From IMG/VR virus record IMGVR_UViG_3300029107_000044, positions 1 to 18,194 of that record: a DNA stretch of 18,194 bases; one strand, given 5' to 3'. The translations under genes were made by a program, and so were the position numbers. This document shows positions 1 through 14,630 of this stretch, in pieces. Each line of letters starts with the position of its first letter. Within the stretch, counting starts at the first letter, position 1. The notes under the pieces were generated by a model. It did no database searches. It saw only the letters and a program-made list of their open reading frames with translations, and was not told where the DNA came from. The stretch comes from a virus (Duplodnaviria > Heunggongvirae > Uroviricota > Caudoviricetes).

Positions 1-489
1 ATGGCTACCAATCCGAGAGAACATGCCCGGCGAGTGCTGGAGACGTTCTGGCGTGGTCGGGACTTTCCTGTCGATCCTGCAAAAATCGCTAACGATATGG
101 GGATTGATGTTTTTATTGGCAAATTACCGGGCAATGTGTCTGGGGCTTTGATCAAGCAAAGGTGTCAGGATCCCGCAATCTTTCTTAACGCAGATGATAG
201 CAAGCCCCGGCAGCGCTTTTCGTGCGGACATGAACTCGGTCATTATATTGCCAGACTGGCAGATCAAAGTGACGTCTATGAGTACGCTGATTTTCGTGGT
301 GAAGAATCCAGGAGTGGAACTGATCCAGATGAAATCTTTGCGAATCAGTTTGCTGCTGAACTTCTTATGCCTATAGATGAAGTAAAAAGACTGCATTCTC
401 AGGGACATCCGAGCTATGTTATAGCACATCATTTCGGAGTGTCTGATGATGCGATCAATTTCCGTCTGAAGAATCTAAGGTTAGCCTGA
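1..489 (+). CDS. ImmA/IrrE-family (M78-like) zinc metallopeptidase; may be 5'-partial at the window edge
   Basis: 162-aa ORF with HEXXH motif (SCGHELGHY) and a downstream FAxxLLMP-type motif typical of ImmA/IrrE peptidases. ATG sits exactly at position 1, so the true start may lie upstream. Confidence 0.6.
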   Translation: MATNPREHARRVLETFWRGRDFPVDPAKIANDMGIDVFIGKLPGNVSGALIKQRCQDPAIFLNADDSKPRQRFSCGHELGHYIARLADQSDVYEYADFRGEESRSGTDPDEIFANQFAAELLMPIDEVKRLHSQGHPSYVIAHHFGVSDDAINFRLKNLRLA

Positions 490-500
490 TACATTGAGCT

Positions 501-968
501 ATGCAGCACGAGAACGATTCTGATAATGAATTCAGGTTGTCGGTATTCGATACCCTAAAGGGAACGCTGAACCAACATAGACAGATGGCTGAAGAGGGGC
601 GCGACGAACAGGCCTTTAAAAAAGATGAAGAGATCGAGAGTGAACATTTTGTCTATAGATCACGCACAAGGAGTGGCACAGATCATTCCGATGTGACACA
701 GGTTGGTTCGCTTGACCCTGAGCAACACAGAAAACAGCTCAGTAACAGAGATTTTGAAGGTGAGATTAAGTTAAAAAAGACCTATGGTATCTGGCTTTTG
801 TTTATTCTTGCCATCCAGTTGCTTGTTATGAATGCGGTGTTCATTGTGGTTGGATTTAAGACACTGGTATTTGATGCCTTAACATTGCAGCTGTACATGG
901 GGGGAACCTTAACAGAAGTGTTTGGGCTTGTTCTCGTAATCACGAAGTACCTCTTCAATCGAAAATAG
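501..968 (+). CDS. hypothetical membrane protein (acidic N-terminal region, about two C-terminal transmembrane helices)
   Basis: 155-aa ORF 12 nt after the peptidase stop, same strand. C-terminal hydrophobic stretches (IWLLFILAIQLLVMNAVFIVVGF; TEVFGLVLVITKYLF). No recognised family. Confidence 0.4.
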   Translation: MQHENDSDNEFRLSVFDTLKGTLNQHRQMAEEGRDEQAFKKDEEIESEHFVYRSRTRSGTDHSDVTQVGSLDPEQHRKQLSNRDFEGEIKLKKTYGIWLLFILAIQLLVMNAVFIVVGFKTLVFDALTLQLYMGGTLTEVFGLVLVITKYLFNRK

Positions 969-1002
969 CCCCATTGGTTGATTTGGGGCCTTTGCTATTT
1001 CA

Positions 1003-2013
1003 TTACCCTTCTTTTTTGACTAATGGCAGATCCAGTGTTGGTGTGATTTTCGTTTTCCGGTCATAAACTAGCACTTGCGCTTCAGTCTTATGTCCAGAGA
1101 AAAGCTGTTTGTCCCGACTGCTTCCCTCATAGTCTGAAATCCCTTTAGCCTTAAGATCATGAAAGGTGAAGTCGGTTAAAATACCTGAAATTTTGCCTGC
1201 GCGATTTCTTGCTTCTACCCACATTTCGTTAAAGCCTTTGTACATATATCGGTTGCCGTATTGATTGCTGATTACATAGGCGGATGTTGGTAACTGTTTT
1301 GCTTTTTCGATCGCCGCCTGTAATCGTGGACTCCATGCTTTTATCTGTTTTTTCCCTGTTTTCCCTTGCTGGATAAAGATCCCGTCGTTTCCAATCTGCT
1401 CCCATTTCAGCGATAACACATCGGAAACCCTCGCTGCACACAGATAGGCAATTTCCATTGCGATAAAAACAGGAAGAGGTGCAACGCTTAATACTGCCTG
1501 GTATTCTTTATCAGTTACATATCGTTCGCGGTTTTTGGCCTTGAATTTACTTACACCTGCACATGGGTTACTCTTCACGTACCCTCGCTCATACCCCCAA
1601 CTGTAAACGCGGGACATACTGCTTTTTTCATGGTTGGCTTGCGTTTTACTCTGTTCCCCTCTCTTGTCCATGTATCGACGGATGTGTTCTGGTTTTATGG
1701 AATCTGCCTGCACCTTACCGAATACGGCAAGCAACTTTTTTTGATGTTGCAGATAATCTTTTTGTGTTCTTGGACTGAGGTCACTGTAATAGGCGCTGGC
1801 GAGGAATTTTTCCCACAAGCGACCGAATGTCATTGCGCGATCGCGATTATTTACAGTTTCCTCATACTTTTTCCATAAAGCAGCTAAACCATCCTTGATG
1901 GCGGTTAGTGTGACAGATTCTCTGGATGTTGGTTTCCATACATAACTATATTTATTTGGGTATACATTTGGAGGTAGTTTTTCGTGTTCAGGATTTTTCC
2001 TTCGTCTTCCCAT
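1003..2013 (-). CDS. int: phage tyrosine integrase (lambda Int-like)
   Basis: 336-aa ORF. N-terminus MGRRRKNPEHEKLPPNVY resembles lambda Int MGRRRSHERRDLPPNLY; C-terminus GHKTEAQVLVYDR resembles the lambda Int catalytic-Tyr region (LGHKSDTMASQYRDDR). Confidence 0.9.
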   Translation of the reverse strand: MGRRRKNPEHEKLPPNVYPNKYSYVWKPTSRESVTLTAIKDGLAALWKKYEETVNNRDRAMTFGRLWEKFLASAYYSDLSPRTQKDYLQHQKKLLAVFGKVQADSIKPEHIRRYMDKRGEQSKTQANHEKSSMSRVYSWGYERGYVKSNPCAGVSKFKAKNRERYVTDKEYQAVLSVAPLPVFIAMEIAYLCAARVSDVLSLKWEQIGNDGIFIQQGKTGKKQIKAWSPRLQAAIEKAKQLPTSAYVISNQYGNRYMYKGFNEMWVEARNRAGKISGILTDFTFHDLKAKGISDYEGSSRDKQLFSGHKTEAQVLVYDRKTKITPTLDLPLVKKEG

Positions 2014-2216
2014 CAGATTGCACCAAAATTCGGCTCTACCTCGCGTGGTGGTAAAGTTTTATTGCAGGTAAATAGATCCCGGCTGACAATCGGTTTGCCA
2101 CTACGATTGGTATAGAACGGAAGCCCGTTTTCCGTTAACCATTTTCGCTGGTGGCTTGCATATTTGCAGCCCGTTAATATTAGCAATTCATCTTCGGTTA
2201 AAAATAAGCTGCTCAT
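2013..2216 (-). CDS. excisionase-like protein (Xis)
   Basis: 67-aa ORF directly upstream of int on the same strand, its end overlapping the int start codon. Position and size fit a lambdoid xis; sequence family not verified. Confidence 0.5.
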   Translation of the reverse strand: MSSLFLTEDELLILTGCKYASHQRKWLTENGLPFYTNRSGKPIVSRDLFTCNKTLPPREVEPNFGAI

Positions 2217-2274
2217 AGCTATATCTCATAACCGCCGCTAACTATATACGGTTAGCGGCAATTAGGGTTGAACA

Positions 2275-4749
2275 TTAAAAATCAGCCTGACTCGGGATCA
2301 GTTTTTGCCAGATAGCTGAAACGTATTTTGCCTGGTAACGGGCGTCATCAAGTGCATTGTGGCGCTCACCTTCGAATGGAATATCCGTTCTGGCATCGAA
2401 GTTCAGGGCTTTTCCCAGCTCAACGATTGTGCGCACATCGCGATCGTTGCAATAACGCCACGGGCAGGGGATCCCCTGCCGTTCGTATGAACGGCGTAAA
2501 ATCACGTTGTCGAAGTTGGCTCCATTTCCCCAGACCTGAACAAAAAACTCACCGGAGTTTTCATCGATAAATTCCCGCAATTGCAGCAATGCATCATCTA
2601 ACGGGATTTCATCGGTCAGAATGGCAGATTGCGCCTCGCGTGATTGCTTAAGCCACCATTTAATGACGTCACGATCAATGACTCCGCCAGCAGTATCCAG
2701 ATCGATGGTCTTGCTAAATTCCGGCCCCATCTCTCCGGTTTCGGGATCAAAGAATTTACCGCCAATAGAGTTGATTGGCGCATCAGGATTTGTTCCCATC
2801 GTTTCAAGATCGATCATCAGATGGTGCCACACCCGGCTGGTGGATGTGATAACGTGATGACCGTTCACCGCAATTAAGGGATCTGTCGCCTCGCCAGTTT
2901 CACTATCGCTGGCGTGGCCCTGAGCGCTTCCCGCATTCTCCTTGTGTGGATGTTCAGCGCCTTCCATTTTCTCCGAATCGTCTTCCTGAACTTCGACCTG
3001 ATTCTCGTCATCGAACGTTTCCTGGTATGTTGCGTCACCCATCACCGCGCCACAATCAGGGCAGTTGCCGCCACCGCTCTTACCGCAGGCGGTGCAGATC
3101 TTTTCCGGTTCCTGTTGCGCTACTGGTTCGGATTGTTTCGTTTCTGGCTCGTTTTGTTGCGTATTTGGGCTGTTTTGCTCCGCTTTCTGGTCGTTCTGTT
3201 CCGTTTCTTGCTGGTTCTGGTTCACAGAATCGCGGGTTTCAATTCCCTTCACCCACTTCGGATCATTCGGGTCGCTAATCCCTGCAACAAATTCTCCGCG
3301 AGAGGCAGCAAGCAACTGATTGGCGTCAGGCTGGCTGATATTGGCTGCCTGCATAATTTTGTTTACTTCGTCAGCGGTAACTTTTACCGGCTCTGGTTGT
3401 GCTGCCGTGTCAGACGCACCAGTATTTTGTTGTGAGCCTGAGTATGTGCCGTTTTTACGGGCAAAATATTCTTCTTTCGTGATTTCAGTAGCCCCGGCAG
3501 CCAGCGCCTTTTCCAGACCTGAAAGTTTGTTTGCACGACCGTATTTTTCGCCATCCTTATCTGTGAAGAGGAAGTAGAACGGCCCCTCACGCTCTACAGA
3601 TGGTTCGACTTCCACTTCGCATTCGGTTTTTTCGTTGTCCGGCATTGCCGTTTCCACTGCATCAGTTTCAGGTACTGGCGACGGGAGAGTATCAGTTGTG
3701 CTCTGATTTGTTCCTTCATCTTCAAATACGCCCTTTGTAGTCAGGTAGTCAGTGATGTATTTGTTCAGTGCCACAGGGTCTTTGTGAATGTCGATCGGAC
3801 GTTCACGGACAAGGCCAAAAATAGTCTGACGGTCGTAACGAATGGCATCAGGCTGTTTGCGCATTGATGCAGAAATACGCTTCCAGTCTTCGCGATCGTT
3901 CTCGATAACTTCATTTTTTGCCCAGCGATGGATGCTGCCGTCAATGTTTCCGGCATCAATGTCACCAGGCCACAGAGAGTAGGCCAGCTCTTCATCCAGC
4001 GTTTTCCATGTCTGCTTGTATTCGCGACGAATGGCAGTAGTGACAGGGTTGATTTTTTCTGCTGAGTTTTCAGTGTGCTGTCGGTTGACTCTGGCGCGGG
4101 CAAGATCAACAACAGAAGTATATGCACCACCTTCTTTGCGATCCTTTTCCTGGCGTTTTTTACGGTCGAGAAAATATGCCTGAACGTCGGGCCATTTGGC
4201 GGTTGGTTTTAAATCATGTCTGGCATCGTTGATGTATTCAATCTGACGTTCCGGATACATGGCGTTAATTTCTTTAGTCCGGATAATTGCTTCTGCGAGG
4301 TGTCCGTCAAAGGTCATCATGTCGTCATCACCAAGAAGCCCGCTTGCGTTGATGACCATATCCACGGTGACGTTTTCATGTGTGCCGAACTTAACGAGGA
4401 CAGCGGCCTGCTTGTCGTCGGATAACTGGTTAAAGTTAACAATTTCTGTATTCGGCTCTGGTTCGACCGGAACAAAGGAAGCGGATTCCTCATCCCAGCG
4501 GTTTTCCTGCATATATTCGGTATCCCAGGAATCAAGGGCGGGGCGGGCCATGCCGGGTTTATCCTCGCAGACAAGAAATTTATAAGCACAGTCCTGAGCA
4601 GCCGGATATTGCTCCAGGAATTGCCAGGTAAATTTGGCGCGGGCGCGGCGTTCGTCACCGGCTTCAATGGCAGTGGCTACAGCAACTGCACCTTCTTCCT
4701 TAATTGCCTGTTCGTCCGGAATGGCGGCGCAAATAAAGACTTTACTCAT
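2275..4749 (-). CDS. prophage exonuclease (exodeoxyribonuclease VIII / RecE-like linker with C-terminal DEDDh-type 3'-5' exonuclease domain)
   Basis: 824-aa ORF. Central segment (LLAASRGEF..GISDPNDPKWVKGI..CTACG..GGGNCPDCGAVMGDATYQETFD) closely matches the linker/zinc-ribbon region of Rac RecE as I recall it. C-terminal ~180 aa has DnaQ-like exonuclease motifs (MIDLETMG, HNALDDARY). Confidence 0.8.
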   Translation of the reverse strand: MSKVFICAAIPDEQAIKEEGAVAVATAIEAGDERRARAKFTWQFLEQYPAAQDCAYKFLVCEDKPGMARPALDSWDTEYMQENRWDEESASFVPVEPEPNTEIVNFNQLSDDKQAAVLVKFGTHENVTVDMVINASGLLGDDDMMTFDGHLAEAIIRTKEINAMYPERQIEYINDARHDLKPTAKWPDVQAYFLDRKKRQEKDRKEGGAYTSVVDLARARVNRQHTENSAEKINPVTTAIRREYKQTWKTLDEELAYSLWPGDIDAGNIDGSIHRWAKNEVIENDREDWKRISASMRKQPDAIRYDRQTIFGLVRERPIDIHKDPVALNKYITDYLTTKGVFEDEGTNQSTTDTLPSPVPETDAVETAMPDNEKTECEVEVEPSVEREGPFYFLFTDKDGEKYGRANKLSGLEKALAAGATEITKEEYFARKNGTYSGSQQNTGASDTAAQPEPVKVTADEVNKIMQAANISQPDANQLLAASRGEFVAGISDPNDPKWVKGIETRDSVNQNQQETEQNDQKAEQNSPNTQQNEPETKQSEPVAQQEPEKICTACGKSGGGNCPDCGAVMGDATYQETFDDENQVEVQEDDSEKMEGAEHPHKENAGSAQGHASDSETGEATDPLIAVNGHHVITSTSRVWHHLMIDLETMGTNPDAPINSIGGKFFDPETGEMGPEFSKTIDLDTAGGVIDRDVIKWWLKQSREAQSAILTDEIPLDDALLQLREFIDENSGEFFVQVWGNGANFDNVILRRSYERQGIPCPWRYCNDRDVRTIVELGKALNFDARTDIPFEGERHNALDDARYQAKYVSAIWQKLIPSQADF

Positions 4750-4872
4750 TTTGTTTTAACCTCATTACAGATTTAAGGGTGAACAAATCCCTGCCATTGC
4801 TGGCATATAAGAATCAAATCTGATGTATTCATTAAGCTGAATGTCGTATTGTGGCAGTTATTTTATTACTGC

Positions 4873-5094
4873 TCACCATGACTCTGCTTTTACAGGTAAA
4901 CCATCACGACCAAGGAAGACTTTAATCATGGTTTCCTTAATACAGTGTTGTGTGGAAAAATCACGAATATAGAGCCGTTGTTTTTTAATGTTGTTTACCG
5001 AAGCAATATATGTTCTTCCTTTATGAATAACATAATCACCGGGAGTCACGCACTGACGAGGAATCTCATCAGTTCCGAAGTGATGAGCAATCAT
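4873..5094 (-). CDS. hypothetical protein at the dicB position of the operon (not DicB-like)
   Basis: ORF-track 77-aa ORF; a GGAG RBS precedes the second in-frame ATG (5094), giving 73 aa. Lies downstream of DicF in the same operon direction; no similarity to K-12 DicB recognised. Confidence 0.4.
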
Positions 5095-5268
5095 AATTAT
5101 CTCCATTTTTACAAATGAACTTTGTTGATGCGGTGCCTGGTGCCTCCAGGTGACGTTAACCAGTTAACAATTAACGCCGGATACAGAGAATCCACCCATA
5201 ACACAGTTTTCTGTTTTAACTGTTCCGCGTGCGCTCAGCCGCATTCACCACATCACAAAATTCACTTT

Positions 5269-5326
5269 AAAAAGGGCGGCAGAGCAGTCACGGAGTAAAA
5301 CTGATACCGCCAAACGTCACCAGAAA
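5269..5326 (-). ncRNA. dicF: DicF small regulatory RNA (cell-division inhibitor sRNA targeting ftsZ mRNA)
   Basis: Minus-strand sequence TTTCTGGTGACGTTTGGCGGTATCAGTTTTACTCCGTGACTGCTCTGCCGCCC followed by TTTTT matches DicF as I recall it, including its intrinsic terminator. Synteny downstream of ydfC supports it. Confidence 0.85.
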
Positions 5327-5666
5327 ATTGATAACAGAGGGCGTTGCAGCGGGGTTGTCACTTAAGCGTATGGTCAACCTGACAACCCGGTGTCCTCAAC
5401 GGGGAAGGAATAACCCCGCCATACTTACCGCCGCGCCATTTCGCGGGTTGCCACAACCGGAAGCGCACGGTCGACGAAAATTTAACGACAGGCTATCTAT
5501 GAACCAGCTACCTCGCCGTGCGCTTTCGCGTTATGGTCTGACTTTTCAGGGAAATATCCTTTCAGTAAACTGTCAGTGCCGGATGCTCACCCGTGTCCGG
5601 CGCACGCACTCCACCTCACCCGTGGAGAACTCCTTAATTACCAACCTTAGCTTCGTTGGTTAGCTA

Positions 5667-5885
5667 TTAACGCGGGTATGTAATCATTCTGGCAATGCTT
5701 AATGCCGCTGCTTTTTCCAGATTGGTGATATCCTGCTCCAGAGAGAACAGATTTTCAGCCTGCTTAGCCCTGGCTTCATTAGCCCATTTCAGATCCTGCG
5801 CTGCATTAATTTTCTGGTGCATCCACTCATAAAGTTCATCATCGGTATAGTCTGGCGCGATGATAACGGGTTCTCGTTTCTGCAT
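5667..5885 (-). CDS. ydfC: YdfC-like prophage protein
   Basis: 72-aa ORF with AGGAA RBS before the ATG. Length and position (third gene after dicA, just upstream of DicF) match K-12 Qin ydfC (72 aa). Confidence 0.6.
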   Translation of the reverse strand: MQKREPVIIAPDYTDDELYEWMHQKINAAQDLKWANEARAKQAENLFSLEQDITNLEKAAALSIARMITYPR

Positions 5886-5914
5886 ACTGATTCCTTGCGG
5901 TGCTGTTTCGCTTA

Positions 5915-6043
5915 TCAGCCGTTAGATTTTGCCGAACTGGAAAGCGCCTGTTTAAATTCGCTGAAGCTGAGAGCTTCTTCGCCTTCGGCAAGGCCTTCGA
6001 AGTATTCTTCGTAAGCCTTTTCCATGATTGTGTCGAAATCCAT
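5915..6043 (-). CDS. ydfB: YdfB-like small protein (42 aa)
   Basis: Hand-translated ORF below the track's 60-aa cutoff: MDFDTIMEKAYEEYFEGLAEGEEALSFSEFKQALSSSAKSNG. Sits between the ydfA-like and ydfC-like genes; length matches K-12 ydfB (42 aa). Confidence 0.5.
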   Translation of the reverse strand: MDFDTIMEKAYEEYFEGLAEGEEALSFSEFKQALSSSAKSNG

Positions 6044-6044
6044 A

Positions 6045-6200
6045 TCACCCACCTGAATTTCTTTCCAGCCAGCGACGCGCTCCAGATTCGGTTTTAAACG
6101 TTTTGCTTTTGGTATACGTCATTGCGGTGAACGTGCCGTCCTGGTTTGGAAACACGCCGTACACCAGAGATTCGTTGTTGCCAAGATCGATAGTATCCAT
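6045..6200 (-). CDS. ydfA: YdfA-like small protein (51 aa)
   Basis: Internal ATG at 6200 with a GAGG RBS 5 nt upstream gives MDTIDLGNNESLVYGVFPNQDGTFTAMTYTKSKTFKTESGARRWLERNSGG (51 aa). First gene downstream of dicA; length matches K-12 ydfA. Confidence 0.5.
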   Translation of the reverse strand: MDTIDLGNNESLVYGVFPNQDGTFTAMTYTKSKTFKTESGARRWLERNSGG

Positions 6201-6314
6201 GCTGACCTCATTTCCCCTTAACGCCGGGGTAGCGGAACTGTTTGCTGAGAACACCGTGCGGTGTCTTGATGGAAAATAATTTAGAATAACCTAACATGAG
6301 AGGCAAGTGTTTTT

Positions 6315-6332
6315 TGTTAGATTGATCTAACA
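6315..6332. promoter_or_regulatory. 18-bp palindromic operator TGTTAGA-N4-TCTAACA upstream of the ydfA-dicF operon (putative DicA operator at the dicB-operon promoter)
   Basis: Perfect inverted repeat TGTTAGATTGATCTAACA between the dicA stop and the ydfA start. A second copy with identical arms lies at 6826-6843. Confidence 0.55.
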
Positions 6333-6368
6333 AAAAGGGTGGGCGCAACTAATCACTTGAAAAGAATG

Positions 6369-6776
6369 TTATTTTATTGATTTATTTTTACGCGCTTTAA
6401 GCATTTCTTCGAAGAGTTTGTTGAAGTTTTCTACTCTTGCGCGCATTTCAGACAGCAAGGCTTCCTGCTCGGAAGATGGAAGAGCATCGAATAATTCGAT
6501 CAATTCTTTGTGGTTGGGAGTTAGCTCTGTTTCCACATGAAGTTCTTGTGCAGGCACTGGTGCCTTGTCTTCGTCACCAAACATTAGCCATGTAGGTGAG
6601 CACTTCAGAGCATCCGCTAAAGCAAACAATCGTTTTCCGACTGGCTGGGTTTCGTCTCTTTCCCATTGTGAAATTGTGACGTGAGCAACTCCAGCGAGGC
6701 GCGCGGCTTCTCGTTGTGTTAAGCGTAATTCTTTTCGTCGCGCCAGAACTCGCTGGCCCAGGGTTCTTGTATCCAT
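6369..6776 (-). CDS. dicA: DicA-like HTH (XRE-family) repressor
   Basis: 135-aa ORF with an N-terminal XRE-type helix-turn-helix (LRLTQREAARLAGVAHVTISQWE) and no S24 peptidase domain. Length and divergent arrangement with a cro-like gene match K-12 dicA (135 aa). Confidence 0.8.
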   Translation of the reverse strand: MDTRTLGQRVLARRKELRLTQREAARLAGVAHVTISQWERDETQPVGKRLFALADALKCSPTWLMFGDEDKAPVPAQELHVETELTPNHKELIELFDALPSSEQEALLSEMRARVENFNKLFEEMLKARKNKSIK

Positions 6777-6798
6777 AGTTAGGTAATTCTAATTTTTC

Positions 6799-6843
6799 TT
6801 GACTTAGGTATCCCGCGCACAATAATGTTAGAAAAGTCTAACA
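6799..6843 (+). promoter_or_regulatory. divergent dicA/dicC control region: sigma-70 promoter (TTGACT-N17-ATAATG) overlapping an operator palindrome
   Basis: TTGACT at 6799-6804, 17-nt spacer, ATAATG at 6822-6827. Palindrome TGTTAGAAAAGTCTAACA at 6826-6843 overlaps the -10 and precedes the dicC RBS (GAGGGGG). Confidence 0.55.
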
Positions 6844-6856
6844 AGAGGGGGATTTG

Positions 6857-7084
6857 ATGCTTAAAGTTGACGCAATTACTTTTTTTGGCAGCAAAACAAA
6901 GCTTGCCAATGCCGCAGGAGTGAGGCTGGCAAGTGTTGCTGCTTGGGGGATACTGGTTCCTGAAGGTCGCGCGATGCGTCTACAGGAGGCATCTGGCGGG
7001 GAGCTTCAGTATGATCCCAAAGTTTATGATGAATATCGTAAGACGAAGCGGGCGGGGCGGTTGAACAATGAAAATCACTCCTGA
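6857..7084 (+). CDS. dicC: DicC/Cro-like small DNA-binding regulator (YdaS-like)
   Basis: 75-76-aa ORF divergent from dicA with a strong RBS. The track starts at TTG 6854; ATG 6857 is the likelier start. Length and position match K-12 dicC (76 aa). Confidence 0.65.
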   Translation: MLKVDAITFFGSKTKLANAAGVRLASVAAWGILVPEGRAMRLQEASGGELQYDPKVYDEYRKTKRAGRLNNENHS

Positions 7085-7589
7085 ACAGGCTCGTGAGGCT
7101 CTGGATGCCTGGATATGTCGACCAGGAATGACACAGGAGCAGGCGACGATATTAATCACTGAAGCATTCTGGGCTTTGAAAGAGCGCCCGAACATCGATG
7201 TTCAGCGTGTCACAGATGAAGGTGGCGCGGTTGATCAGCGAGCGCTTGGTGTTAATCGAGTGAAGATATTCGAACGCTGGAAGGCTATCGACACCAGGGA
7301 TAAGCGTGAAAAGTTCACGGCGCTAGTGCCTGCGATTATGGAGGCTATCCGGATTAGTGATTTCAGGTTGTATCGTGAAATTACTGACGGAAAAAGCATC
7401 ACGTGCATGATCGCCGGGTTAAACAAAGAATATGGCGATGTGGTGGAGTCCGGACTGCTTTTTGCTGATCCTGCCGTAGTGGATCGTGAAACTGACGAAC
7501 TTATAGAAAAAGCAATTGCTTTCAAGCTTGCGTATCGACAGCAATACCAACAAAAAGCTGGATGGAATTATGAGCCTTCTTTTTGCTGA
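7068..7589 (+). CDS. YdaT-like protein (CII-position regulator/toxin-domain family)
   Basis: 173-aa ORF overlapping the dicC end. Segment KIFERWKAIDTRDKREKFTALVPAIMEAI resembles the Rac YdaT sequence as I recall it. Confidence 0.55.
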   Translation: MKITPEQAREALDAWICRPGMTQEQATILITEAFWALKERPNIDVQRVTDEGGAVDQRALGVNRVKIFERWKAIDTRDKREKFTALVPAIMEAIRISDFRLYREITDGKSITCMIAGLNKEYGDVVESGLLFADPAVVDRETDELIEKAIAFKLAYRQQYQQKAGWNYEPSFC

Positions 7590-8535
7590 ACGCCCACTGG
7601 TTATAAACACGCAGCTGGCAATGAAAATTGGCTTAAACGAAGCCATTGTTTTGCAACAACTGCACTACTGGTTGAGAGATACCAACTCCGGCATGGAATG
7701 TGATGGTGTTCGCTGGATTTATAACACAACGGAACAATGGCTGGAACAGTTCCCATTCTGGTCAGAGTCAACGTTAAAGCGCGCGTTTGCAAGTCTGAAA
7801 ACGCTGGGGCTTTTGCGTTGTGAAAAGCTCAATAAATCAAAGCGCGATATGACCAATTTCTACACGATCAACTATGGGAGCGAGCTTTTAGATGGTGGCA
7901 AATTGAGCGAATCCATCGGTTCAAAATGCGCCGCTCCATCAGGTCAAAATGACACGATGGAAGAGGTCAAAATGAAACGCTCCATTGATTCAAAACGACC
8001 CAATGTCATCGGGTCAAAATGGCCTGATGATCTTACAGAGAATACAACAGAGATTACTACAGAGAATAAAAACACTTTTCGTCCGGAAGCTTCGCAACCG
8101 GACCCGCAGACGACTGAACAGGATTTTTTAACCCGGAACTCCGACGCGGTTGTGTTTAGTGCGAAAAAACGCCAGTGGGGTAGCAGGGAGGATTTGGCGT
8201 GTGCGCAGTGGATCTGGGGGCGGATCGTGGGTCTCTACGAACAGGCAGCCAGTGATGATGGCGAGATCATGCGACCAAAAGAGCCTAACTGGACTGCCTG
8301 GGCCAATGACGTGCGCACAATGCGGATGCTGGATGGCAGAAGCCACAGACAAATTTGCGAAATGTTTGGTCGGGTTCAGCGAGATCCATTCTGGGTAAAA
8401 AACATCATGAGCCCGTCAAAGCTCCGCGAAAAATGGGACGAACTGGTCATCCGCCTGGGACGTTCACCTGTACAGCGTTGTGTTAATCATATTTCTGAAC
8501 CGGATACAGAAATTCCGCCTGGTTTCAGAGGATAA
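7570..8535 (+). CDS. phage replication initiation protein (O-like replisome organiser with DnaT-like C-terminal domain)
   Basis: ATG 7570 is preceded by an RBS; the track ORF starts in-frame at 7516 inside the upstream gene. N-terminal HTH-like region, central repeat-containing linker that carries iterons in the DNA, C-terminal DnaT-like region (judged by eye). Confidence 0.7.
   Translation: MSLLFAERPLVINTQLAMKIGLNEAIVLQQLHYWLRDTNSGMECDGVRWIYNTTEQWLEQFPFWSESTLKRAFASLKTLGLLRCEKLNKSKRDMTNFYTINYGSELLDGGKLSESIGSKCAAPSGQNDTMEEVKMKRSIDSKRPNVIGSKWPDDLTENTTEITTENKNTFRPEASQPDPQTTEQDFLTRNSDAVVFSAKKRQWGSREDLACAQWIWGRIVGLYEQAASDDGEIMRPKEPNWTAWANDVRTMRMLDGRSHRQICEMFGRVQRDPFWVKNIMSPSKLREKWDELVIRLGRSPVQRCVNHISEPDTEIPPGFRG
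7918..8021 (+). repeat. putative replication origin: five direct iterons (GGTCAAAATG core) at ~23-bp spacing inside the initiator gene
   Basis: Repeats at 7918, 7941, 7964, 7988 (degenerate) and 8011, followed by an A-rich stretch at 8022-8090. Layout is analogous to lambda ori within gene O. Confidence 0.6.
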
Positions 8536-8575
8536 GTGTTGATTTCAGGTCATGAGGTAATTTTAAGGGGGACTT

Positions 8576-8998
8576 GTGGCAAAAGTTTTTACACAAGAAG
8601 AGCGGGAAAAAATTAAATGGCAGGTGGTGGAACTCGTGCGCCAGAGCGGCCGTGAGACGTTACGGCAACTGGAAGCTAAAACAGGTGCGACTAGATATCT
8701 GATGAGCGTTCTTGCCAGAGAGCTGGTAGCCAGTGGCGATGTATACAACTCCGGCTACGGGTTATTCCCCTCTGAACAGGCGCGTAAGGACTGGCAAAAC
8801 GCCCGCAAAAAACTCTCGAGGGCAAAGGTGAAGAAACCTGCTGTGGTTGATCCGGACCTTATCTGGTCATCACCTGACGGAGAAATACGTCGCTACGACA
8901 GTCGCCTAAACATAATCTGTCGCGAGTGCCGGAAGAGCGAAGTTATGCAGCGCATACTGGCTTTCTATCAGGGTAATTTTCAGGACGTGGCGCAGTGA
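8576..8998 (+). CDS. hypothetical protein, translationally coupled to the downstream methyltransferase ORF
   Basis: 140-aa ORF with GTG start and an AAGGGGG RBS 6 nt upstream. Its stop overlaps the next start in GTGA (8995-8998). No recognised family. Confidence 0.5.
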   Translation: MAKVFTQEEREKIKWQVVELVRQSGRETLRQLEAKTGATRYLMSVLARELVASGDVYNSGYGLFPSEQARKDWQNARKKLSRAKVKKPAVVDPDLIWSSPDGEIRRYDSRLNIICRECRKSEVMQRILAFYQGNFQDVAQ

Positions 8999-9351
8999 GT
9001 GCACCGGCAACCATTCTTGATATGTGCTGTGGCAGCCGCATGTTCTGGTTCGATAAGTCTGACGAACGGGCGATATTTAGCGATATCAGAAAAGAAGGAT
9101 ACACATTACGCAATGGGAGACGCTTGATTATCAGCCCTGACATTATCGCAGATTTTCGTGCATTATCATTTGCAGACGCATCTTTTTCGATGGTTGTATT
9201 AGACCCTCCGCATCTTGAGCGTGTTGGTGATAACGCCTGGATGGGAAAGAAATATGGACGGCTGAATAAAGATGCCTGGCGTGATGATTTGCGACAGAGA
9301 TTTAAAGAAGCTTTTCGGGTGTTGAGGCCGCACGGCGTTCTGATTTTTTAA
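8995..9351 (+). CDS. DNA methyltransferase, truncated (N6-adenine/N4-cytosine type; AdoMet motif I and DPPH catalytic motif present, target-recognition region absent)
   Basis: 118-aa ORF with motif I-like ILDMCCGSRMF, an acidic residue after the next strand (IFSDIR) and motif IV VVLDPPHL. It ends at a TAA after ...RPHGVLIF; the same frame continues past the stop (WNETQIPVSQILALTDRKPV...) and about 1 kb downstream has no long ORF. Confidence 0.5.
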   Translation: MSAPATILDMCCGSRMFWFDKSDERAIFSDIRKEGYTLRNGRRLIISPDIIADFRALSFADASFSMVVLDPPHLERVGDNAWMGKKYGRLNKDAWRDDLRQRFKEAFRVLRPHGVLIF

Positions 9352-9961
9352 TGGAATGAAACGCAAATACCGGTAAGCCAGATTCTGGCACTGACAGATA
9401 GAAAGCCTGTTATCTGTCAACGAACAGGGAAAAAACGATAAAACCCACTGGATTATTTTTATGAAAGAGGCATCCAGTGAGTAGATTCGTAAGGTTACAG
9501 ATACGTATATCTGAATAATTAAATTCAGTTCTGTAAATAAAACTTAATCCTTAACCGGATGGATTTCTGCACCCTCAGAACATCAGGAGGCCGCCCGAAA
9601 GGGCGGTAGTGAAATGCGAAAGTTCAAAATTATTATTGAAACGGGAATAGCTGGTGGAGATTTTGAGGATGTATTCGAAGTGGACGATGACGCAACACCT
9701 GATGAAATTCATGACGGAGCATAAGAAATTTTCTTTAACTACTGCAATTACTCATACCACGAAATAAAAGACGATGAGGAAGAACAAAGTGGCTGATTTT
9801 TGTTCAGCTAAATATAACATCAGTTTTGAAGAGCGGGATGAACTATTAATGGACTATGGTGAGTTACGCGGTGGAAGTGCTGCTGATGTCGAATCCTAGC
9901 GTGATGACTATGAAGCGGGAAAAACTCCGGTCGAAGCATATTGTGATGAGTGGGGCGATGA

Positions 9962-10249
9962 ATGAGCGAGATTAATTATCAGGAAGGGCATGAAACGGCG
10001 GGGCAAGCAAAACCAGTGACATGGCGATATCGCTACGTGAAAAAAGGCGTTACGGACTTTCAGGGGAAGTAGTGGTCTGGTGACTGGAAATATGTACCGA
10101 AAAAAGAGGATTGTAACGACAGGCCGAACTATCAAATTCAGGCCTTATTCACTGCCTCACCAGTCCCGGTTACATCAGAAGAATTGGTTAAAGCTGTGCA
10201 CTTTTATGAACAACTAAAACGCGAAAATCCACCAACATCCGGCAACTAG
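9962..10249 (+). pseudogene. possible nonsense-disrupted ORF (96 codons with one in-frame amber at 10070-10072)
   Basis: Hand translation: MSEINYQEGHETAGQAKPVTWRYRYVKKGVTDFQGK, then TAG, then WSGDWKYVPKKEDCNDRPNYQIQALFTASPVPVTSEELVKAVHFYEQLKRENPPTSGN. Could be coincidental. Confidence 0.3.
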
Positions 10250-10503
10250 ATTAATGGGTTAACTATGTCGGTTAAACGACCAGCCAACTGAAAAAGCGGA
10301 AACCTGATTACAGGTTGCCAGATAAGGCAATGAGCTACCTGGCGCGGAACGGACTGATAAGTATGGGGAATGTTTTACGATGAACCTTTAGACTAAAGAG
10401 TTTGTAACGCTATGTAAGTGATTTTTTCTGGTTTAGATATTTATATGTCCGGCCAAATTGAGGTGTGTTTAAATGTAATTGCACATTGATTGTAGGAGGA
10501 ATA

Positions 10504-10683
10504 ATGAAAAACGCATTGCAGTTTTTGTTTGTTGCGTTCTGGTTGTTCGCATCATGTATGCCCATCATCTTCACAGCAAGGTATATGGAAAAAGTTGATG
10601 TTTTGATATTAATATTTGGATATATAAATGCCCTTTTTTTAGGGGTGTTCATGGCGGTCATGTGCATTGAATACTGGCGGTAA
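10504..10683 (+). CDS. small hydrophobic membrane protein (59 aa, about two transmembrane helices) in an AT-rich island
   Basis: Strong RBS (AGGAGGAATA) before ATG 10504; the track ORF starts upstream at 10465. Sequence MKNALQFLFVAFWLFASCMPIIFTARYMEKVDVLILIFGYINALFLGVFMAVMCIEYWR. Confidence 0.45.
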   Translation: MKNALQFLFVAFWLFASCMPIIFTARYMEKVDVLILIFGYINALFLGVFMAVMCIEYWR

Positions 10684-11017
10684 ATACAGCGAACTCCATT
10701 GGTTTAGTTGGATATTTACTGTGCTGGACAAAAACGGTTTGCGGGGAAATCTTAGTTAAGTAGAATGACTGCGGGTGCTTGAGGCTATCTGCCTCGGGCA
10801 CGAACACCAACGGCAGGTAGAGAAAAGCCCCAGTTAACATTACGCGTCCTGCAAGACGCTTAACATTAATCTGAGGCCAATTTCATGCCAGACACATGTA
10901 GGTTAGCCTCTTACGTGCCGAAAGGCAAGGAGAAGCAGGCTATTGTTAACACCAAGCTGTAATGTCCCCTTTGAACCATTCTAAAATGTCCCCAGACAAT
11001 TCTCTGGGGGATTTTTC

Positions 11018-11389
11018 ATGACCAAAGAAACTGTTACGATGAGTCATAAGGAACTCCACCGACTTCAGATTATTCAGGAGTCAATTAATCGACATATTAC
11101 TCAGGAACAAGCTGCGGCACGCATTGGCATTTCTATTCGGCAGGTTAAACGTCTGGTGCAACGGTATAGAAATGAAGGGCCTTCTGGTCTGGTTTCCCAC
11201 CGACGTGGAAAGCGTCCTAATAATTCCTTTTCTACTGAATTCAGAGCAACAGTAATTTTACTCCTCAAAGGCCGTTACGCTGATTTTGGACCTACGTTTG
11301 CGTGCGAAAAATTGCGCGAGATACACGGTTTATCTTTATCCGTTGAAACTCTCAGAAAGTGGATGATAGAAGAGGGGGGTATGGCGTGA
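11018..11389 (+). CDS. transposase N-terminal part (HTH domain; orfA or upstream fragment of a frameshifted gene)
   Basis: 123-aa ORF with a helix-turn-helix (ITQEQAAARIGISIRQVKRLVQRY). It ends just after a G6 homopolymer (GAGGGGGGT); the +1 frame continues in-frame into the downstream ORF (..GVWRERRRKIARIYQRRMRRPSYGELIQ..). Confidence 0.7.
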   Translation: MTKETVTMSHKELHRLQIIQESINRHITQEQAAARIGISIRQVKRLVQRYRNEGPSGLVSHRRGKRPNNSFSTEFRATVILLLKGRYADFGPTFACEKLREIHGLSLSVETLRKWMIEEGGMA

Positions 11390-11426
11390 ACGCCGTCGTA
11401 AAATTGCCCGTATATATCAACGCCGC

Positions 11427-12359
11427 ATGCGACGACCATCTTACGGTGAACTGATCCAGATTGATGGCTCACCTCATGACTGGTTTGAAAATCGAGGCCC
11501 CAGATGTACACTGATCGTTTTCATTGATGATGCCACCAGTGCGTTGATGGCGTTGCGTTTTGTGCCTGCTGAAACAACCCGGGCTTACATGGAAACCCTC
11601 CGGGGTTACCTTAATGATCATGGCGTACCGCTCGCTCTCTACTCTGATAGACACAGTATATTCAGGGTAAATAACCCAGAGCGGGAAGGTGAGCTGACCC
11701 AGTTCACTCGTGCGATAAAGACACTGGGCATCGAGCCAATCCATGCCAACAGCCCGCAGGCAAAAGGGCGGGTAGAGCGCGCCAATCAGACACTACAGGA
11801 CAGGCTGGTCAAAGAAATGCGGCTTCAGAATATCAGTGATATTGAAACAGCAAATGCATGGTTGCCGACCTTTATTGAAGCCTATAACAACCGGTTCGCT
11901 ACGTCGCCTCGTACTACTGATAATGCTCATCTTGATGTGCACCATTCTGAAGAGGAACTGGGTTATATCTTCAGCCTACAGGCGAAGCGCGTTCTGTCTA
12001 AAAATCTCACTTTCCAGTACAAAAGCAGTGCGTTTCAGGTACGCAGTGAGGGCCGGGGATATCGACTTAGGCATTCGGTTGTTACTGTATGCGAGAACTT
12101 TGACGGTGAAATTAACGTTCTGTATGACGGGAAAGCGCTGGGCTGGGAAAAGTATGTTGATGGCCCGGAGCCTATACCACTGGATGATGAAAAGAGTGTC
12201 CATGAACGAGTGGATAATGCCCGTATTGATTTACGCTCAAAATACTATGTTAAACCTAAAGCTGACCATCCCTGGCTTACGCGCCGAACGCAAAGTCATC
12301 AGCAAGTTAAGCCCCCGAAGTTACCTAAAAAGAAGCCTGATCCCGATAAAAAAGATTGA
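11427..12359 (+). CDS. transposase C-terminal part (DDE integrase-core / rve domain)
   Basis: 310-aa ORF with rve-type motifs (IQIDGSPHDW, LYSDRHSIF, KGRVERANQTLQDRL) and a lysine-rich C-terminus. Confidence 0.75.
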   Translation: MRRPSYGELIQIDGSPHDWFENRGPRCTLIVFIDDATSALMALRFVPAETTRAYMETLRGYLNDHGVPLALYSDRHSIFRVNNPEREGELTQFTRAIKTLGIEPIHANSPQAKGRVERANQTLQDRLVKEMRLQNISDIETANAWLPTFIEAYNNRFATSPRTTDNAHLDVHHSEEELGYIFSLQAKRVLSKNLTFQYKSSAFQVRSEGRGYRLRHSVVTVCENFDGEINVLYDGKALGWEKYVDGPEPIPLDDEKSVHERVDNARIDLRSKYYVKPKADHPWLTRRTQSHQQVKPPKLPKKKPDPDKKD

Positions 12360-12754
12360 AACCAAGATCGATTCGGTTGAGTGCATATCCATTCATAGGG
12401 TAGATTCTTAAGTCGCGTTTCTGGTGTTCATTTTCGGGTGGTTTGTTACTTGTTTTACCGGGGATATGCCAGAAACGCGCTGAGTCAGTCTGGGCGGTGC
12501 GCGTAATGAGGCGTTATGGTAAATAGCCTATGCTAATGTCCGCTAAGAGCAAGAAGCGGAAGTTGGCAGTTTTGTGGACTGTCCCCACAAAAGTGACTAC
12601 AGAAATAGTTGCAATTCATAATTGATCATGGGTTGTCAGTTAAACTCGTGGCGATTTAAATAGACTAATTGGGAGTGCGTCCATTACTTATATCTTGTAA
12701 TGTTAACTATCAGAAATGATACAAAGATAATATGTCTTTAAAGAAAAGGCTGAT

Positions 12755-12781
12755 GGCGAAAAGTGGCCCGATGAGGGCCAC
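12755..12781 (-). terminator. intrinsic terminator downstream of flxA
   Basis: Minus-strand hairpin GTGGCCC-TCATC-GGGCCAC followed by TTTTCGCC, 15 nt after the flxA stop. Confidence 0.55.
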
Positions 12782-12795
12782 AATACGGCTGTCAC

Positions 12796-13128
12796 TTAGA
12801 CGTAAATATCAATGGTGCCAGCGGTATTTGTATCGTCTTTTTTCTCTTCTTTTTTATCAGGCTGAACTGTCGCGTCTTTATTCTTTTTCTCTGCCTGCTG
12901 CCTTAACAACTGCTCCAGTTGAGCCCTGAGGCTTTCAATTTGCTTCTGTACCAATGCAGCCATTTCTTTTTTCTGCTGTGTCGTCATCCCCTCTTCCGAT
13001 GAGATTTTCCCAAGCTTTTCAGTCAGCACCTGAATTTGTCTTGTGATTTTGGCTATTTCTGATGTTCCTTCCGGGGCGGAGTTGTTTGAAATAACGGTTG
13101 AGGTATTTCCCTGAATTGTGACAGACAT
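12796..13128 (-). CDS. flxA: FlxA-like protein (sigma-28-dependent prophage gene)
   Basis: 110-aa ORF (MSVTIQGNTSTV...), matching the length of K-12 Qin FlxA, with a near-consensus FliA promoter immediately upstream. Confidence 0.8.
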   Translation of the reverse strand: MSVTIQGNTSTVISNNSAPEGTSEIAKITRQIQVLTEKLGKISSEEGMTTQQKKEMAALVQKQIESLRAQLEQLLRQQAEKKNKDATVQPDKKEEKKDDTNTAGTIDIYV

Positions 13129-13151
13129 AGATTTCTCCTTTTAAAAAAGCA

Positions 13152-13178
13152 CTATCGGCATGCACAAAAAAATCTTTA
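13152..13178 (-). promoter_or_regulatory. sigma-28 (FliA) class-3 flagellar promoter for flxA
   Basis: Minus strand reads TAAAGATT-N11-GCCGATAG, against the consensus TAAAGTTT-N11-GCCGATAA, placed upstream of the flxA RBS (AAAAGGAG). Confidence 0.75.
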
Positions 13179-13330
13179 ATCGTATTTCTTGTGTCATTAA
13201 TTGTTTGATGTTCAGATTGTTTTCCTCGCGGGCTGGCGCGCCTCAGAAAGTAAAGCTTGTTGACAGGGGTAAACGTTCGGCAATAATTTTCTGCCGCATG
13301 CGGGTGTTGCATAAAACGTGCTACGTTCCT

Positions 13331-13636
13331 TTATCGACAGGTCAGGTCACCGCTCACCCGCCGACGAGAAAGCAACACTGACATGCTAAAGCAAAAAATA
13401 GATGAATAAGTTGAGTTGTGCATATGTAGCCTGACCGTCACAAAGTATATGGTGTCTGTACCAGTAAGATGATGGCCGGACTCTTTAAAAACGAGCTGAC
13501 CTGCACAATACAGGATGGACTTAGCAATGGCTGCTCCTGGCACAAAGCGGACAGTGATCACCGTTCTTACGACTACTTTCTGACTTCCTTCGTGACTTGC
13601 CCTAAGCATGTTGTAGTGCGATACTTGTAATGACAT
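13331..13636 (-). CDS. hypothetical protein (ydfV-like by position and length); possibly not a real gene
   Basis: 101-aa ORF between flxA and relB, the same size and position as K-12 ydfV. It overlaps the relBE promoter region and has unusual composition. Confidence 0.3.
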   Translation of the reverse strand: MSLQVSHYNMLRASHEGSQKVVVRTVITVRFVPGAAIAKSILYCAGQLVFKESGHHLTGTDTIYFVTVRLHMHNSTYSSIFCFSMSVLLSRRRVSGDLTCR

Positions 13637-13649
13637 TTGTAATTACAAG
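13624..13649 (+). promoter_or_regulatory. relBE operator/promoter region (inverted repeat CTTGTAAT-N10-ATTACAAG)
   Basis: Palindromic element 11 nt upstream of the relB start codon, consistent with RelB/RelE autoregulation sites. Confidence 0.55.
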
Positions 13650-13660
13650 AGGTGTAAGAC

Positions 13661-13900
13661 ATGGGTAGCATTAACCTGCGTATTGACGATGAACTTAAAG
13701 CGCGTTCTTACGCCGCGCTTGAAAAAATGGGTGTAACTCCTTCTGAAGCGCTTCGTCTCATGCTCGAGTATATCGCTGACAATGAACGCTTGCCGTTCAA
13801 ACAGACACTCCTGAGTGATGAAGATGCTGAACTTGTGGAGATAGTGAAAGAACGGCTTCGTAATCCTAAGCCAGTACGTGTGACGCTGGATGAACTCTGA
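13661..13900 (+). CDS. relB: RelB antitoxin
   Basis: 79-aa ORF MGSINLRIDDELKARSYA...RNPKPVRVTLDEL, near-identical to K-12 RelB as I recall it; overlaps the relE start. Confidence 0.92.
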   Translation: MGSINLRIDDELKARSYAALEKMGVTPSEALRLMLEYIADNERLPFKQTLLSDEDAELVEIVKERLRNPKPVRVTLDEL

Positions 13901-14187
13901 TGGCGTATTTTCTGGATTTTGACGAGCGGGCACTAAAGGAATGGCGAAAGCTGGGCTCGACGGTACGTGAACAGTTGAAAAAGAAGCTGGTTGAAGTACT
14001 TGAGTCACCCCGGATTGAAGCAAACAAGCTCCGTGGTATGCCTGATTGTTACAAGATTAAGCTCCGGTCTTCAGGCTATCGCCTTGTATACCAGGTTATA
14101 GACGAGAAAGTTGTCGTTTTCGTGATTTCTGTTGGGAAAAGAGAACGCTCGGAAGTATATAGCGAGGCGGTCAAACGCATTCTCTGA
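13900..14187 (+). CDS. relE: RelE mRNA-interferase toxin
   Basis: 95-aa ORF MAYFLDFDERALKEWRKLG...VISVGKRERSEVYSEAVKRIL, matching K-12 RelE as I recall it. Confidence 0.92.
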   Translation: MAYFLDFDERALKEWRKLGSTVREQLKKKLVEVLESPRIEANKLRGMPDCYKIKLRSSGYRLVYQVIDEKVVVFVISVGKRERSEVYSEAVKRIL

Positions 14188-14258
14188 ACCAAAGCATGAC
14201 ATCTCTGTTTCGCACCGAAGGTGACACTTCTGCTTTGCGTTGACAGGAGAAGCAGGCT

Positions 14259-14414
14259 ATGAAGCAGCAAAAGGCGATGTTAATCGCCCTGATCGTCATC
14301 TGTTTAACCGTCATAGTGACGGCACTGGTAACGAGGAAAGACCTCTGCGAGGTACGAATCAGAACCGGCCAGACGGAGGTCGCTGTCTTCACAGCTTACG
14401 AACCTGAGGAGTAA
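14259..14414 (+). CDS. hokD: HokD (RelF) Hok-family membrane toxin
   Basis: Hand-translated 51-aa ORF MKQQKAMLIALIVICLTVIVTALVTRKDLCEVRIRTGQTEVAVFTAYEPEE, a typical Hok sequence, with RBS AGGAGAAGCAGG upstream. Below the ORF-track size cutoff. Confidence 0.85.
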   Translation: MKQQKAMLIALIVICLTVIVTALVTRKDLCEVRIRTGQTEVAVFTAYEPEE

Positions 14415-14482
14415 GAGACCCGGCGGGGGAGAAATCCCTCGCCACCTCTGATGTGGCAGGCATCCTCAACGCACCCGCACTT

Positions 14483-14510
14483 AACCCGCTTCGGCGGGTT
14501 TTTGTTTTTA
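14483..14510 (+). terminator. intrinsic terminator after relBE-hokD
   Basis: CCCGC-TTCG-GCGGG hairpin followed by TTTTTGTTTTTATTTT. Confidence 0.7.
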
Positions 14511-14630
14511 TTTTCAACGCGTTTGAAGTTCTGGACGGTGCCGGAATAGAATCAAAAATACTTAAGTAGCGCGCAGGGATAAGAGGGATGGTCCCTTAAA
14601 GGGGAGAGCTAATTATCCGGAAGGATTCTG

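Follow-up and report, generated by a model that had tools for sequence, protein, structure and literature searches.

What does a peptidase gene that is closely followed by a gene for a small membrane protein do in a prophage of Escherichia coli? Such a pair opens an 18,194-nucleotide stretch of viral DNA (Caudoviricetes; positions 1 to 18,194 of IMG/VR record IMGVR_UViG_3300029107_000044), the whole of which we analysed and call the window. We favour the reading, with a probability of about 0.75, that the pair is an autonomous accessory cassette (a "moron") in a lambdoid prophage at serU and that it represents a RosmerTA toxin-antitoxin and anti-phage module of the type known from Gordonia phage Kita, which lacks a helix-turn-helix (HTH) domain. 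The parts of the pair are listed here with the evidence for each, where aa stands for amino acids, AF2 for AlphaFold2 and A1 for our alignment of the membrane protein family.

1 to 489, + strand: rmrA-like gene, encoding a complete 162-aa HTH-less ImmA/IrrE (Peptidase_M78) zinc peptidase, the putative antitoxin (Pfam, PADLOC, BLASTP against Kita, AF2/Foldseek)
229 to 243, + strand: codons of the HELGH zinc-binding and catalytic motif, residues 77 to 81 (sequence; invariant in homologues)
331 to 333, + strand: codon of the distal Glu111 of the peptidase (invariant in homologues)
490 to 500, + strand: intergenic spacer from the peptidase stop to the membrane protein gene, 11 nt (-23 to +11 nt across 25 loci)
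501 to 968, + strand: rmrT-like gene, encoding a 155-aa two-helix membrane protein, a putative membrane-depolarising toxin (PHROG 5346, family search, kinship with Kita gp33)
513 to 716, + strand: variable acidic cytoplasmic N-terminal region, with a helix at residues 5 to 31 and a disordered linker at 32 to 72 (AF2, A1)
717 to 785, + strand: conserved juxtamembrane segment, residues 73 to 95, LDP..R..L.N.D...E..LKK.Y (invariant or near-invariant columns in A1)
786 to 854, + strand: membrane helix 1, residues 96 to 118, with conserved polar Q106 and N111 (A1, hydropathy, AF2)
885 to 953, + strand: membrane helix 2, residues 129 to 151, with the invariant GGT..EVFG...V.TKYLF motif (A1, hydropathy, AF2)

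The 162-aa product matches Pfam PF06114 (Peptidase_M78) at 72.2 bits, against a cut-off of 22, with residues 31 to 157 covering the entire profile, which bears out the HEXXH peptidase that a first-pass annotation of the bare sequence had proposed for this open reading frame (ORF). None of 16 diverse homologues (down to 44% identity) departs from H77, E78, H81 or the distal E111, and such an invariant active site argues that catalysis matters. The AF2 model (pLDDT 89) has the fold of the M78 catalytic domain; Foldseek searches with it found CapP as the best match (7T5T, E 1.5e-7), then IrrE (3DTE) and PprI (8SLN), and also an XRE-DUF955 regulator of Mycobacterium tuberculosis, all of these matches covering the N-terminal peptidase domain only. 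PADLOC gave capP (5e-25) and RmrA models (down to 2e-11). No N-terminal XRE HTH domain is fused to the peptidase in the Pfam scan, which shows PF06114 only, and PF06114 is likewise the sole precomputed Pfam domain (no HTH) in 117/117 clusters of its clade, at about 160 to 280 aa. Translation starts at the ATG of base 1, since RefSeq gives the identical 162-aa product in near-identical genomes and a GGAGG lies 7 nt 5' of it.

The 155-aa product has the acidic N-terminal region and the two transmembrane helices that had been attributed to it earlier: residues 1 to 92 hold 21 D/E and 14 K/R (isoelectric point 5.15), and hydropathy and AF2 agree on membrane helices at about residues 96 to 118 and 129 to 151. 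Polar residues within the helices (Q106, N111 and E139) are conserved in A1 together with a glycine-rich packing motif, a membrane-active design, and the Lys/Arg residues that flank both ends are consistent with a predicted N-in/C-in topology under the positive-inside rule. The linker is hypervariable and rich in insertions and deletions, and nucleotide identity to the pair of one related E. coli genome (L002) is lowest there, at 67%. The juxtamembrane motif recurs in distant family members, and the segment, which would face the cytoplasm in the N-in/C-in arrangement, is the foremost candidate for a docking or cleavage site of the peptidase. The AF2 model of this protein has low confidence (pLDDT 60) and gave no Foldseek match in the PDB, and we drew no structural inference from it.

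The 155-aa protein matches PHROG 5346 at 2e-43, a family whose function is unassigned. A word-indexed search returned 38 clusters, all unnamed, and an exhaustive profile search returned 846 clusters (50% identity, E <= 1e-3), 221 of them at E <= 1e-10; all members are small and have the C-terminal two-helix core in common, and their N-termini vary in length and sequence. Compared with a diverged E. coli allele, the ratio of nonsynonymous to synonymous substitution rates (dN/dS) indicates purifying selection on both genes, at 0.11 for the peptidase and, within the membrane protein, 0.12 for the N-terminal half and 0.04 for the C-terminal half. We found no evidence of positive selection in the hypervariable N-terminal region, where dN/dS is 0.12 with dS saturated. 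Since dN/dS is low and the membrane protein belongs to a family of this size, both ORFs are real genes rather than chance readings.

The two genes form an operon that is strictly conserved. Their spacer, which had earlier been counted as 12 nt, is 11 nt long and fits translational coupling. The first-pass annotation had called for a conservation search of the pair, and when this was run, an M78 peptidase of the same clade was found directly upstream of the membrane protein gene, on the same strand, in 27/27 informative contexts, that is, those with enough upstream DNA present. These comprise 10/10 species-representative genomes (among them Gallibacterium, Thalassotalea, Microbulbifer, Desulfuromonas and a Rhodococcus metagenome-assembled genome), 13/13 viral contigs with a full-length membrane protein gene, and four further loci (L013, L014, L048 and the Firmicute contig L049), so that the pair spans Proteobacteria, Actinobacteria and Firmicutes. 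Seen from the peptidase, the two-helix family lies downstream in 6/7 contexts; in the seventh, in Curtobacterium, the downstream gene encodes an unrelated tail-anchored protein. The divergence of peptidase and toxin is correlated over 25 loci (r = 0.86, Mantel p <= 2e-4), which shows that both proteins are co-inherited and does not necessarily imply that they are in physical contact.

A tested relative of this operon comes from the NetFlax study (Ernits et al. 2023, PMC10440598), in which RosmerTA was validated in Gordonia phage Kita. There, RmrA is gp32 (YP_009301393.1, node D25, annotated Peptidase_M78) and RmrT is gp33 (YP_009301394.1, node D5, annotated transmembrane). The Kita toxin rapidly halts translation, transcription and replication and leaves the membrane of E. 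coli depolarised and permeabilised, and the operon gives E. coli a narrow defence, against phages Bas54 and Bas59 (PMC10440598).

Aligned over 97% of its length, the window peptidase shares 43.3% identity with Kita gp32 (BLASTP, E 2e-32), and a hidden Markov model (HMM) of the peptidase clade scores gp32 at 2.6e-54. Kita gp33 overlaps gp32 by 4 nt, follows it in the same order as in the window and has two C-terminal membrane helices. An HMM built from 182 members of the two-helix family scores gp33 at E 4.1e-13, and the 3,524 ORFs of the database searched include no other match between E 1e-6 and 10. BLASTP of gp33 against a Rhodococcus member of the family gives 4e-10, across both helices, and when hhalign compares the enterobacterial alignment with gp33, columns 92 to 155, again including both helices, align colinearly (E 7.7e-5). 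In both systems, directly after a short HTH-less M78 peptidase comes a small protein whose N-terminus varies and whose C-terminal two-helix hairpin belongs to one shared family, and both lie in an accessory region of a temperate phage, near tail genes or the integrase. With a homologous toxin, an orthologous partner and the same order and architecture, the pair is therefore classed as an enterobacterial Kita-type HTH-less RosmerTA. By homology to Kita, the E. coli pair may thus combine toxicity and membrane depolarisation with neutralisation by the peptidase and protection against phages.

On the other hand, a number of points weigh against this reading. Direct BLASTP of Kita gp33 against the 155-aa protein gives no alignment, so the homology of the toxins is transitive, running through Rhodococcus or a profile; the hhalign probability for gp33 is only 62%, and membrane helices can inflate profile scores. 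Judged from these alignments, the kinship of the two toxins is remote, and the case for it is strong but not absolute. The 155-aa protein has no match in scans with Pfam, NCBIfam or PADLOC (2023 models), of which the PADLOC miss counts here. Furthermore, the Kita peptidase neutralises its toxin only partly, and AlphaFold was unable to model the complex of the two (PMC10440598), so that a direct interaction between peptidase and toxin is unproven. The known proteases ImmA, IrrE and CapP are activated by signals and release a function instead of suppressing one. Finally, the Kita pair was assayed experimentally, whereas the E. coli pair is known here from its sequence alone. The two systems also differ in that the toxins are very divergent, their kinship being visible only by profile or through actinobacterial intermediates, in that the window comes from a lambdoid prophage of E. 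coli and Kita is an actinophage, and in that the enterobacterial toxins have a longer acidic N-terminal region that includes a conserved helix.

Where the pair lies supports its standing as an accessory cassette. Four E. coli chromosome records, which stem from two strains, match the first 1,002 bases of the window at 99.6% identity, and two further records match them at 82%. There, the pair is bordered by a tRNA-Ser gene (serU, a neighbour of mtfA) on one side and by the integrase gene of a lambdoid prophage on the other. A second copy of the final 62 bases of the tRNA gene (60/62 matching) lies some 40 kb off, between tail-fibre genes and yodB. The 3' end of the tRNA gene and its distant repeat are attL and attR, and attL lies 216 bp upstream of window base 1 in the near-identical genomes. 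Since these repeats flank the pair, it is inside the prophage, between attL and the integrase gene, and not just outside the integrase end, where it had been placed at first. The inspection for an XRE-type HTH gene upstream of the window, which the first-pass annotation had called for, came out negative, as the 216-bp spacer contains no ORF for an HTH protein and is followed by tRNA-Ser and attL. A sigma-70 consensus scan of this spacer found no promoter. The sequence TTGGAAT(A) occurs three times between attL and the peptidase start (L001, 11840 to 11870) and recurs near attR (L015, about 27325 to 27622); these repeats, outside the window, are candidate arm-type binding sites of the integrase. 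On the other side of the pair are the following two features.

968 to 989, no strand assigned: GC-rich hairpin with a 6-bp stem and a 10-nt loop, between the convergent toxin and integrase genes (RNA folds of -11.1 and -11.8 kcal/mol on the two strands)
1003 to 2013, - strand: prophage tyrosine integrase, convergent with the pair (Pfam Phage_integrase; RefSeq)

The hairpin is plausibly a bidirectional terminator; a strict terminator consensus scan did not call it, because its loop exceeds 8 nt.

The pair is found in many other settings. It adjoins an integrase gene at the att site both in the window and in one further locus (L026). In a prophage of ST131 and many other E. coli strains it is found in the nin/Q region, oriented against the lytic operon; in a Serratia prophage it follows the Q gene, and in a Mu-like phage it lies between Mor and an amidase gene. 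It also occurs in islands with a P4-like primase, AlpA and an integrase, beside an insertion sequence in one context, beside a type IIG restriction enzyme, and at chromosomal actinobacterial loci that have no phage repressor nearby. In one viral contig, a gene with the toxin-antitoxin domain Panacea stands next to it. A variant of about 71% identity is present, as a single chromosomal copy, in 431/5,426 complete E. coli genomes (about 8%), including those of pandemic ST131. In 50,697 phage genomes, tblastn detected no match to the membrane protein, Kita gp33 being too divergent for this method, and a tblastn search of plasmids gave one weak match, whose record is actually a chromosome. The one E. 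coli phage record with the peptidase is that of Escherichia phage vB_EcoM-705R4 (ON470624.1; L056). This 27-kb "complete genome" ends exactly at the peptidase stop codon, which suggests that the record was cut short inside the toxin-antitoxin cassette of an ST131-type prophage. Searches of the literature and supplements for the protein accessions, for PHROG 5346 and for essentiality of the peptidase in Tn-seq found nothing.

If the pair works as a Kita-type module, the 155-aa protein would act as the toxin, its C-terminal two-helix hairpin inserting into the inner membrane, probably as an oligomer. Left unchecked, it would depolarise and permeabilise the membrane, and macromolecular synthesis would stop. 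The 162-aa peptidase would be the antitoxin, translated first from the shared transcript, and would neutralise the toxin after translation by recognising, and probably cleaving, its cytoplasmic N-terminal or juxtamembrane part. Once a sensitive phage infects the cell, this control would be lifted, such that the lysogen would abort the infection and the resident prophage would be shielded from competitors. A more specific version, which we put forward only tentatively, holds that the peptidase is an enzymatic post-translational antitoxin that cleaves the juxtamembrane segment of the toxin, with a possible hand-over to ClpXP or FtsH, and that a phage factor blocks this cleavage so that the membrane collapses. 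ClpX or ClpP has been reported to be essential in strains with other RosmerTA systems, whose toxins differ, and by analogy this hints at proteolytic clearance of the toxin.

The same two proteins could be wired the other way round, with an N-terminal region that inhibits the membrane protein until a peptidase activated by infection or damage removes it and switches the pore on. Such an activated effector would be in keeping with the M78 relatives ImmA, IrrE and CapP, which respond to signals and act by cleaving a partner, with the invariant catalytic site and with the long disordered linker ahead of the membrane hairpin. However, the N-terminal region is unconserved and in many family members only about 30 to 45 residues long, and a conserved inhibitory domain is therefore absent; the C-terminal domain of the ssDNA (single-stranded DNA)-sensing groove of CapP/PprI is missing from the peptidase; and the Kita toxin is toxic alone and neutralised by its peptidase (PMC10440598). 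We therefore regard this arrangement as unlikely. It resembles the protease-gated membrane effector suggested by the first-pass annotation, of which the assignment to a toxin or abortive-infection type stands, given the conserved operon and the homology to Kita, whereas activation by the protease is not established and the Kita peptidase neutralises.

A regulatory role would need a different substrate, and the window offers one.

6369 to 6776, - strand: DicA-like XRE HTH repressor, 135 aa, without a peptidase S24 domain (Pfam HTH_3, 1.5e-14)

The earlier statement that no HTH repressor is visible in the window thus holds only for the immediate surroundings of the pair, where none adjoins it. 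No other protein of the window is a candidate ImmR-like substrate, and as an HTH-only protein without a self-cleaving S24 domain this repressor belongs to a kind that is a classic substrate of ImmA-family peptidases; cleavage of it would lead to induction, as with an ImmA/ImmR-type anti-repressor, and the membrane protein would be a passenger or accessory. Yet the pair lies 5.4 kb from the immunity region, across the integrase gene, and its linkage to the two-helix gene is near-absolute (27/27). The immunity region (6239 to 8472) has no match in the genomes that carry the 99.6% (L001) and 82% (L002) identical pairs, where the pair is accompanied by immunity regions unrelated to that of the window. 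Three different immunity regions thus go with the pair, which argues against a protease-repressor relationship of the ImmA/ImmR type, as do the actinobacterial chromosomal loci and the copy beside an insertion sequence, with no phage repressor nearby. With no adjacent HTH gene and no co-inheritance with one immunity region, we rejected this explanation, which we consider highly improbable.

We hold it just as improbable that the two-helix protein is simply an anchor that recruits the peptidase to the membrane for superinfection exclusion, where proteins of an incoming phage or a host receptor would be cleaved and the cell would survive. Small inner-membrane proteins are common among prophage exclusion proteins, and the pair sits at accessory positions typical of lysogen-expressed genes, with its own orientation and terminator. 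A simple anchor, however, needs no invariant polar and glycine residues in both helices, and in Kita the homologous membrane protein is a toxin in its own right, which depolarises the membrane (PMC10440598). A small N-in/C-in two-helix protein might also suggest a holin- or antiholin-like device that times lysis under the control of a protease, all the more since the pair lies between a late activator (Q or Mor) and the lysis genes in some phages. In the window and in the ST131-type prophages, on the other hand, a long distance separates the pair from the lysis cassette, which is on the other strand, and P4-like islands and chromosomal loci that have no lysis genes carry the pair as well. A class II holin gene is expected in the lysis cassette, beside the endolysin gene, and despite the two-helix topology this gene stands next to the integrase gene or in the nin region; a part in lysis timing has, in our view, hardly any likelihood.

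The Kita-type reading also has to be set against other known systems. Canonical RosmerTA (Millman et al. 2022) is likewise an anti-phage toxin-antitoxin system in which a zinc-peptidase antitoxin adjoins a toxin without a known domain. Canonical RmrA (PADLOC models of 357 to 400 aa), however, has an N-terminal XRE HTH and a C-terminal extension, both of which the window peptidase lacks, such that it aligns only to RmrA profile positions of about 150 to 290. Canonical RosmerTA is frequently found with the toxin first, whereas in the window the peptidase comes first and the toxin matches no PADLOC model. CapP (PDB 7T5T) is the best sequence and fold match to the peptidase, with the PADLOC value given above and a Foldseek TM-score of 0.72 on the query; the difference is that only positions 3 to 150 of the 242 in the CapP profile are matched, with a target-normalised TM-score of 0.44, and that the C-terminal domain is missing. 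In CapP this domain forms an inter-domain ssDNA groove and a cysteine-switch loop (PMC13228613), and since the window peptidase is without it, activation through such a groove is unlikely here. Neither a CapH-like HTH partner nor a regulated defence operon was found by the pair in the genome context or with PADLOC, and on these grounds, together with the missing domain, we rejected a CapP/CapH-type regulator.

ImmA/ImmR of ICEBs1 and IrrE/DdrO share with the window an M78 peptidase with HExxH and a distal Glu. Their proteases cleave an adjacent HTH repressor, whereas the conserved partner of the window peptidase is a membrane protein; no consistent HTH neighbour of the pair was seen at other loci, and downstream in the window are the membrane protein gene and then the integrase gene. 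PanA-PanT resembles the pair in joining small, tail-anchored or two-helix depolarising toxins to an antitoxin, the PanA domain being hyper-promiscuous; there, the antitoxin is the non-enzymatic Panacea domain, and here the antitoxin candidate is a peptidase. The toxin-antitoxin module behind clpP essentiality in E. coli E101 (Rousset 2021) has its toxin first and consists of different proteins, and we did not equate the window pair with it for these reasons.

In standard annotation, the two genes appear as "ImmA/IrrE family metallo-endopeptidase" and "hypothetical protein". The pair has gone unrecognised as a system because of this annotation and because the 2023 PADLOC models miss the toxin, the peptidase matching capP and RmrA only. 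The E. coli pair is an unannotated relative of a RosmerTA kind that has already been tested. Once read as a Kita-type RosmerTA, the two prophage genes acquire a function that can be tested, namely toxin-antitoxin behaviour and defence against competing phages, and the Kita subtype reaches beyond actinophages into lambdoid, Mu-like and P4-like elements of enterobacteria. The pair also provides a minimal two-protein, HTH-free system in which to study how an M78 peptidase controls a membrane toxin. Should the peptidase indeed cleave the juxtamembrane segment, the ImmA/IrrE family would gain a class of substrates beyond transcription repressors, and a mechanism would be at hand for a family of at least 846 sequence clusters that is represented in about 8% of complete E. 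coli genomes.

Several further observations concern how the pair is built and lost. One protein of 277 aa (P0067, from a 1.8-kb Logan contig) has the peptidase joined to the two-helix toxin in a single ORF. The fusion could be natural, or else an assembly or stop-codon artefact; if real, it would be Rosetta-stone evidence for a direct functional link. The same clade of short peptidases is also found with unrelated small membrane proteins. In Mycobacterium phage Che9c (gp32/gp33, L055), where the pair adjoins a HicAB-like module, and in Curtobacterium (L018/L019), the partner has a single C-terminal helix, and in the P2-like phage NC_070905 (gp41/gp42, L054) a different two-helix protein is encoded 211 bp 3' of the peptidase gene. 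These unrelated membrane partners in Che9c, Curtobacterium and the P2-like phage indicate partner swapping. In a set of viral contigs (L039 to L047) and at positions 9914 to 9996 of locus L004, only the last 24 to 41 codons of the toxin gene are present, at 68 to 88% identity and without a peptidase gene; these short 3' remnants look like scars of cassette loss or of recombination at the 3' end of the gene.

The rest of the window holds features of its own. Beyond the integrase gene, positions 2275 to 4749 (- strand) encode an 824-aa protein whose sole recognised domain is a C-terminal Rv2179c-like 3'-5' exoribonuclease (residues 642 to 814). Its long N-terminal and central part is acidic and Gln-rich and has no family match, and nucleotide identity of the gene to L001 and L002 falls to 66 to 74% around 4001 to 4500. 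The early-left region of the prophage is 97% identical to Qin-type prophages, and within a Qin-like dicB/ydfABC region, at 5274 to 5325 (- strand), Rfam identifies the small RNA DicF (76.7 bits). At 10773 to 10944 (+ strand), Rfam also finds the sok antisense RNA (99.8 bits) of a type I hok/sok toxin-antitoxin locus, and this locus is a second toxin-antitoxin module in the same prophage. At 11018 to 12359 (+ strand), two ORFs with a transposase HTH (HTH_28/HTH_29) and an integrase core (rve_3) have no match in L001 or L002, and an insertion sequence appears to interrupt the prophage there. Finally, a prophage-borne cold-shock gene follows the gene for the Q antiterminator (16262 to 17044), with a thermoregulator of the cspA 5' untranslated region type at 17818 to 18194 (+ strand; Rfam, 154.6 bits), which is cut by the end of the window.

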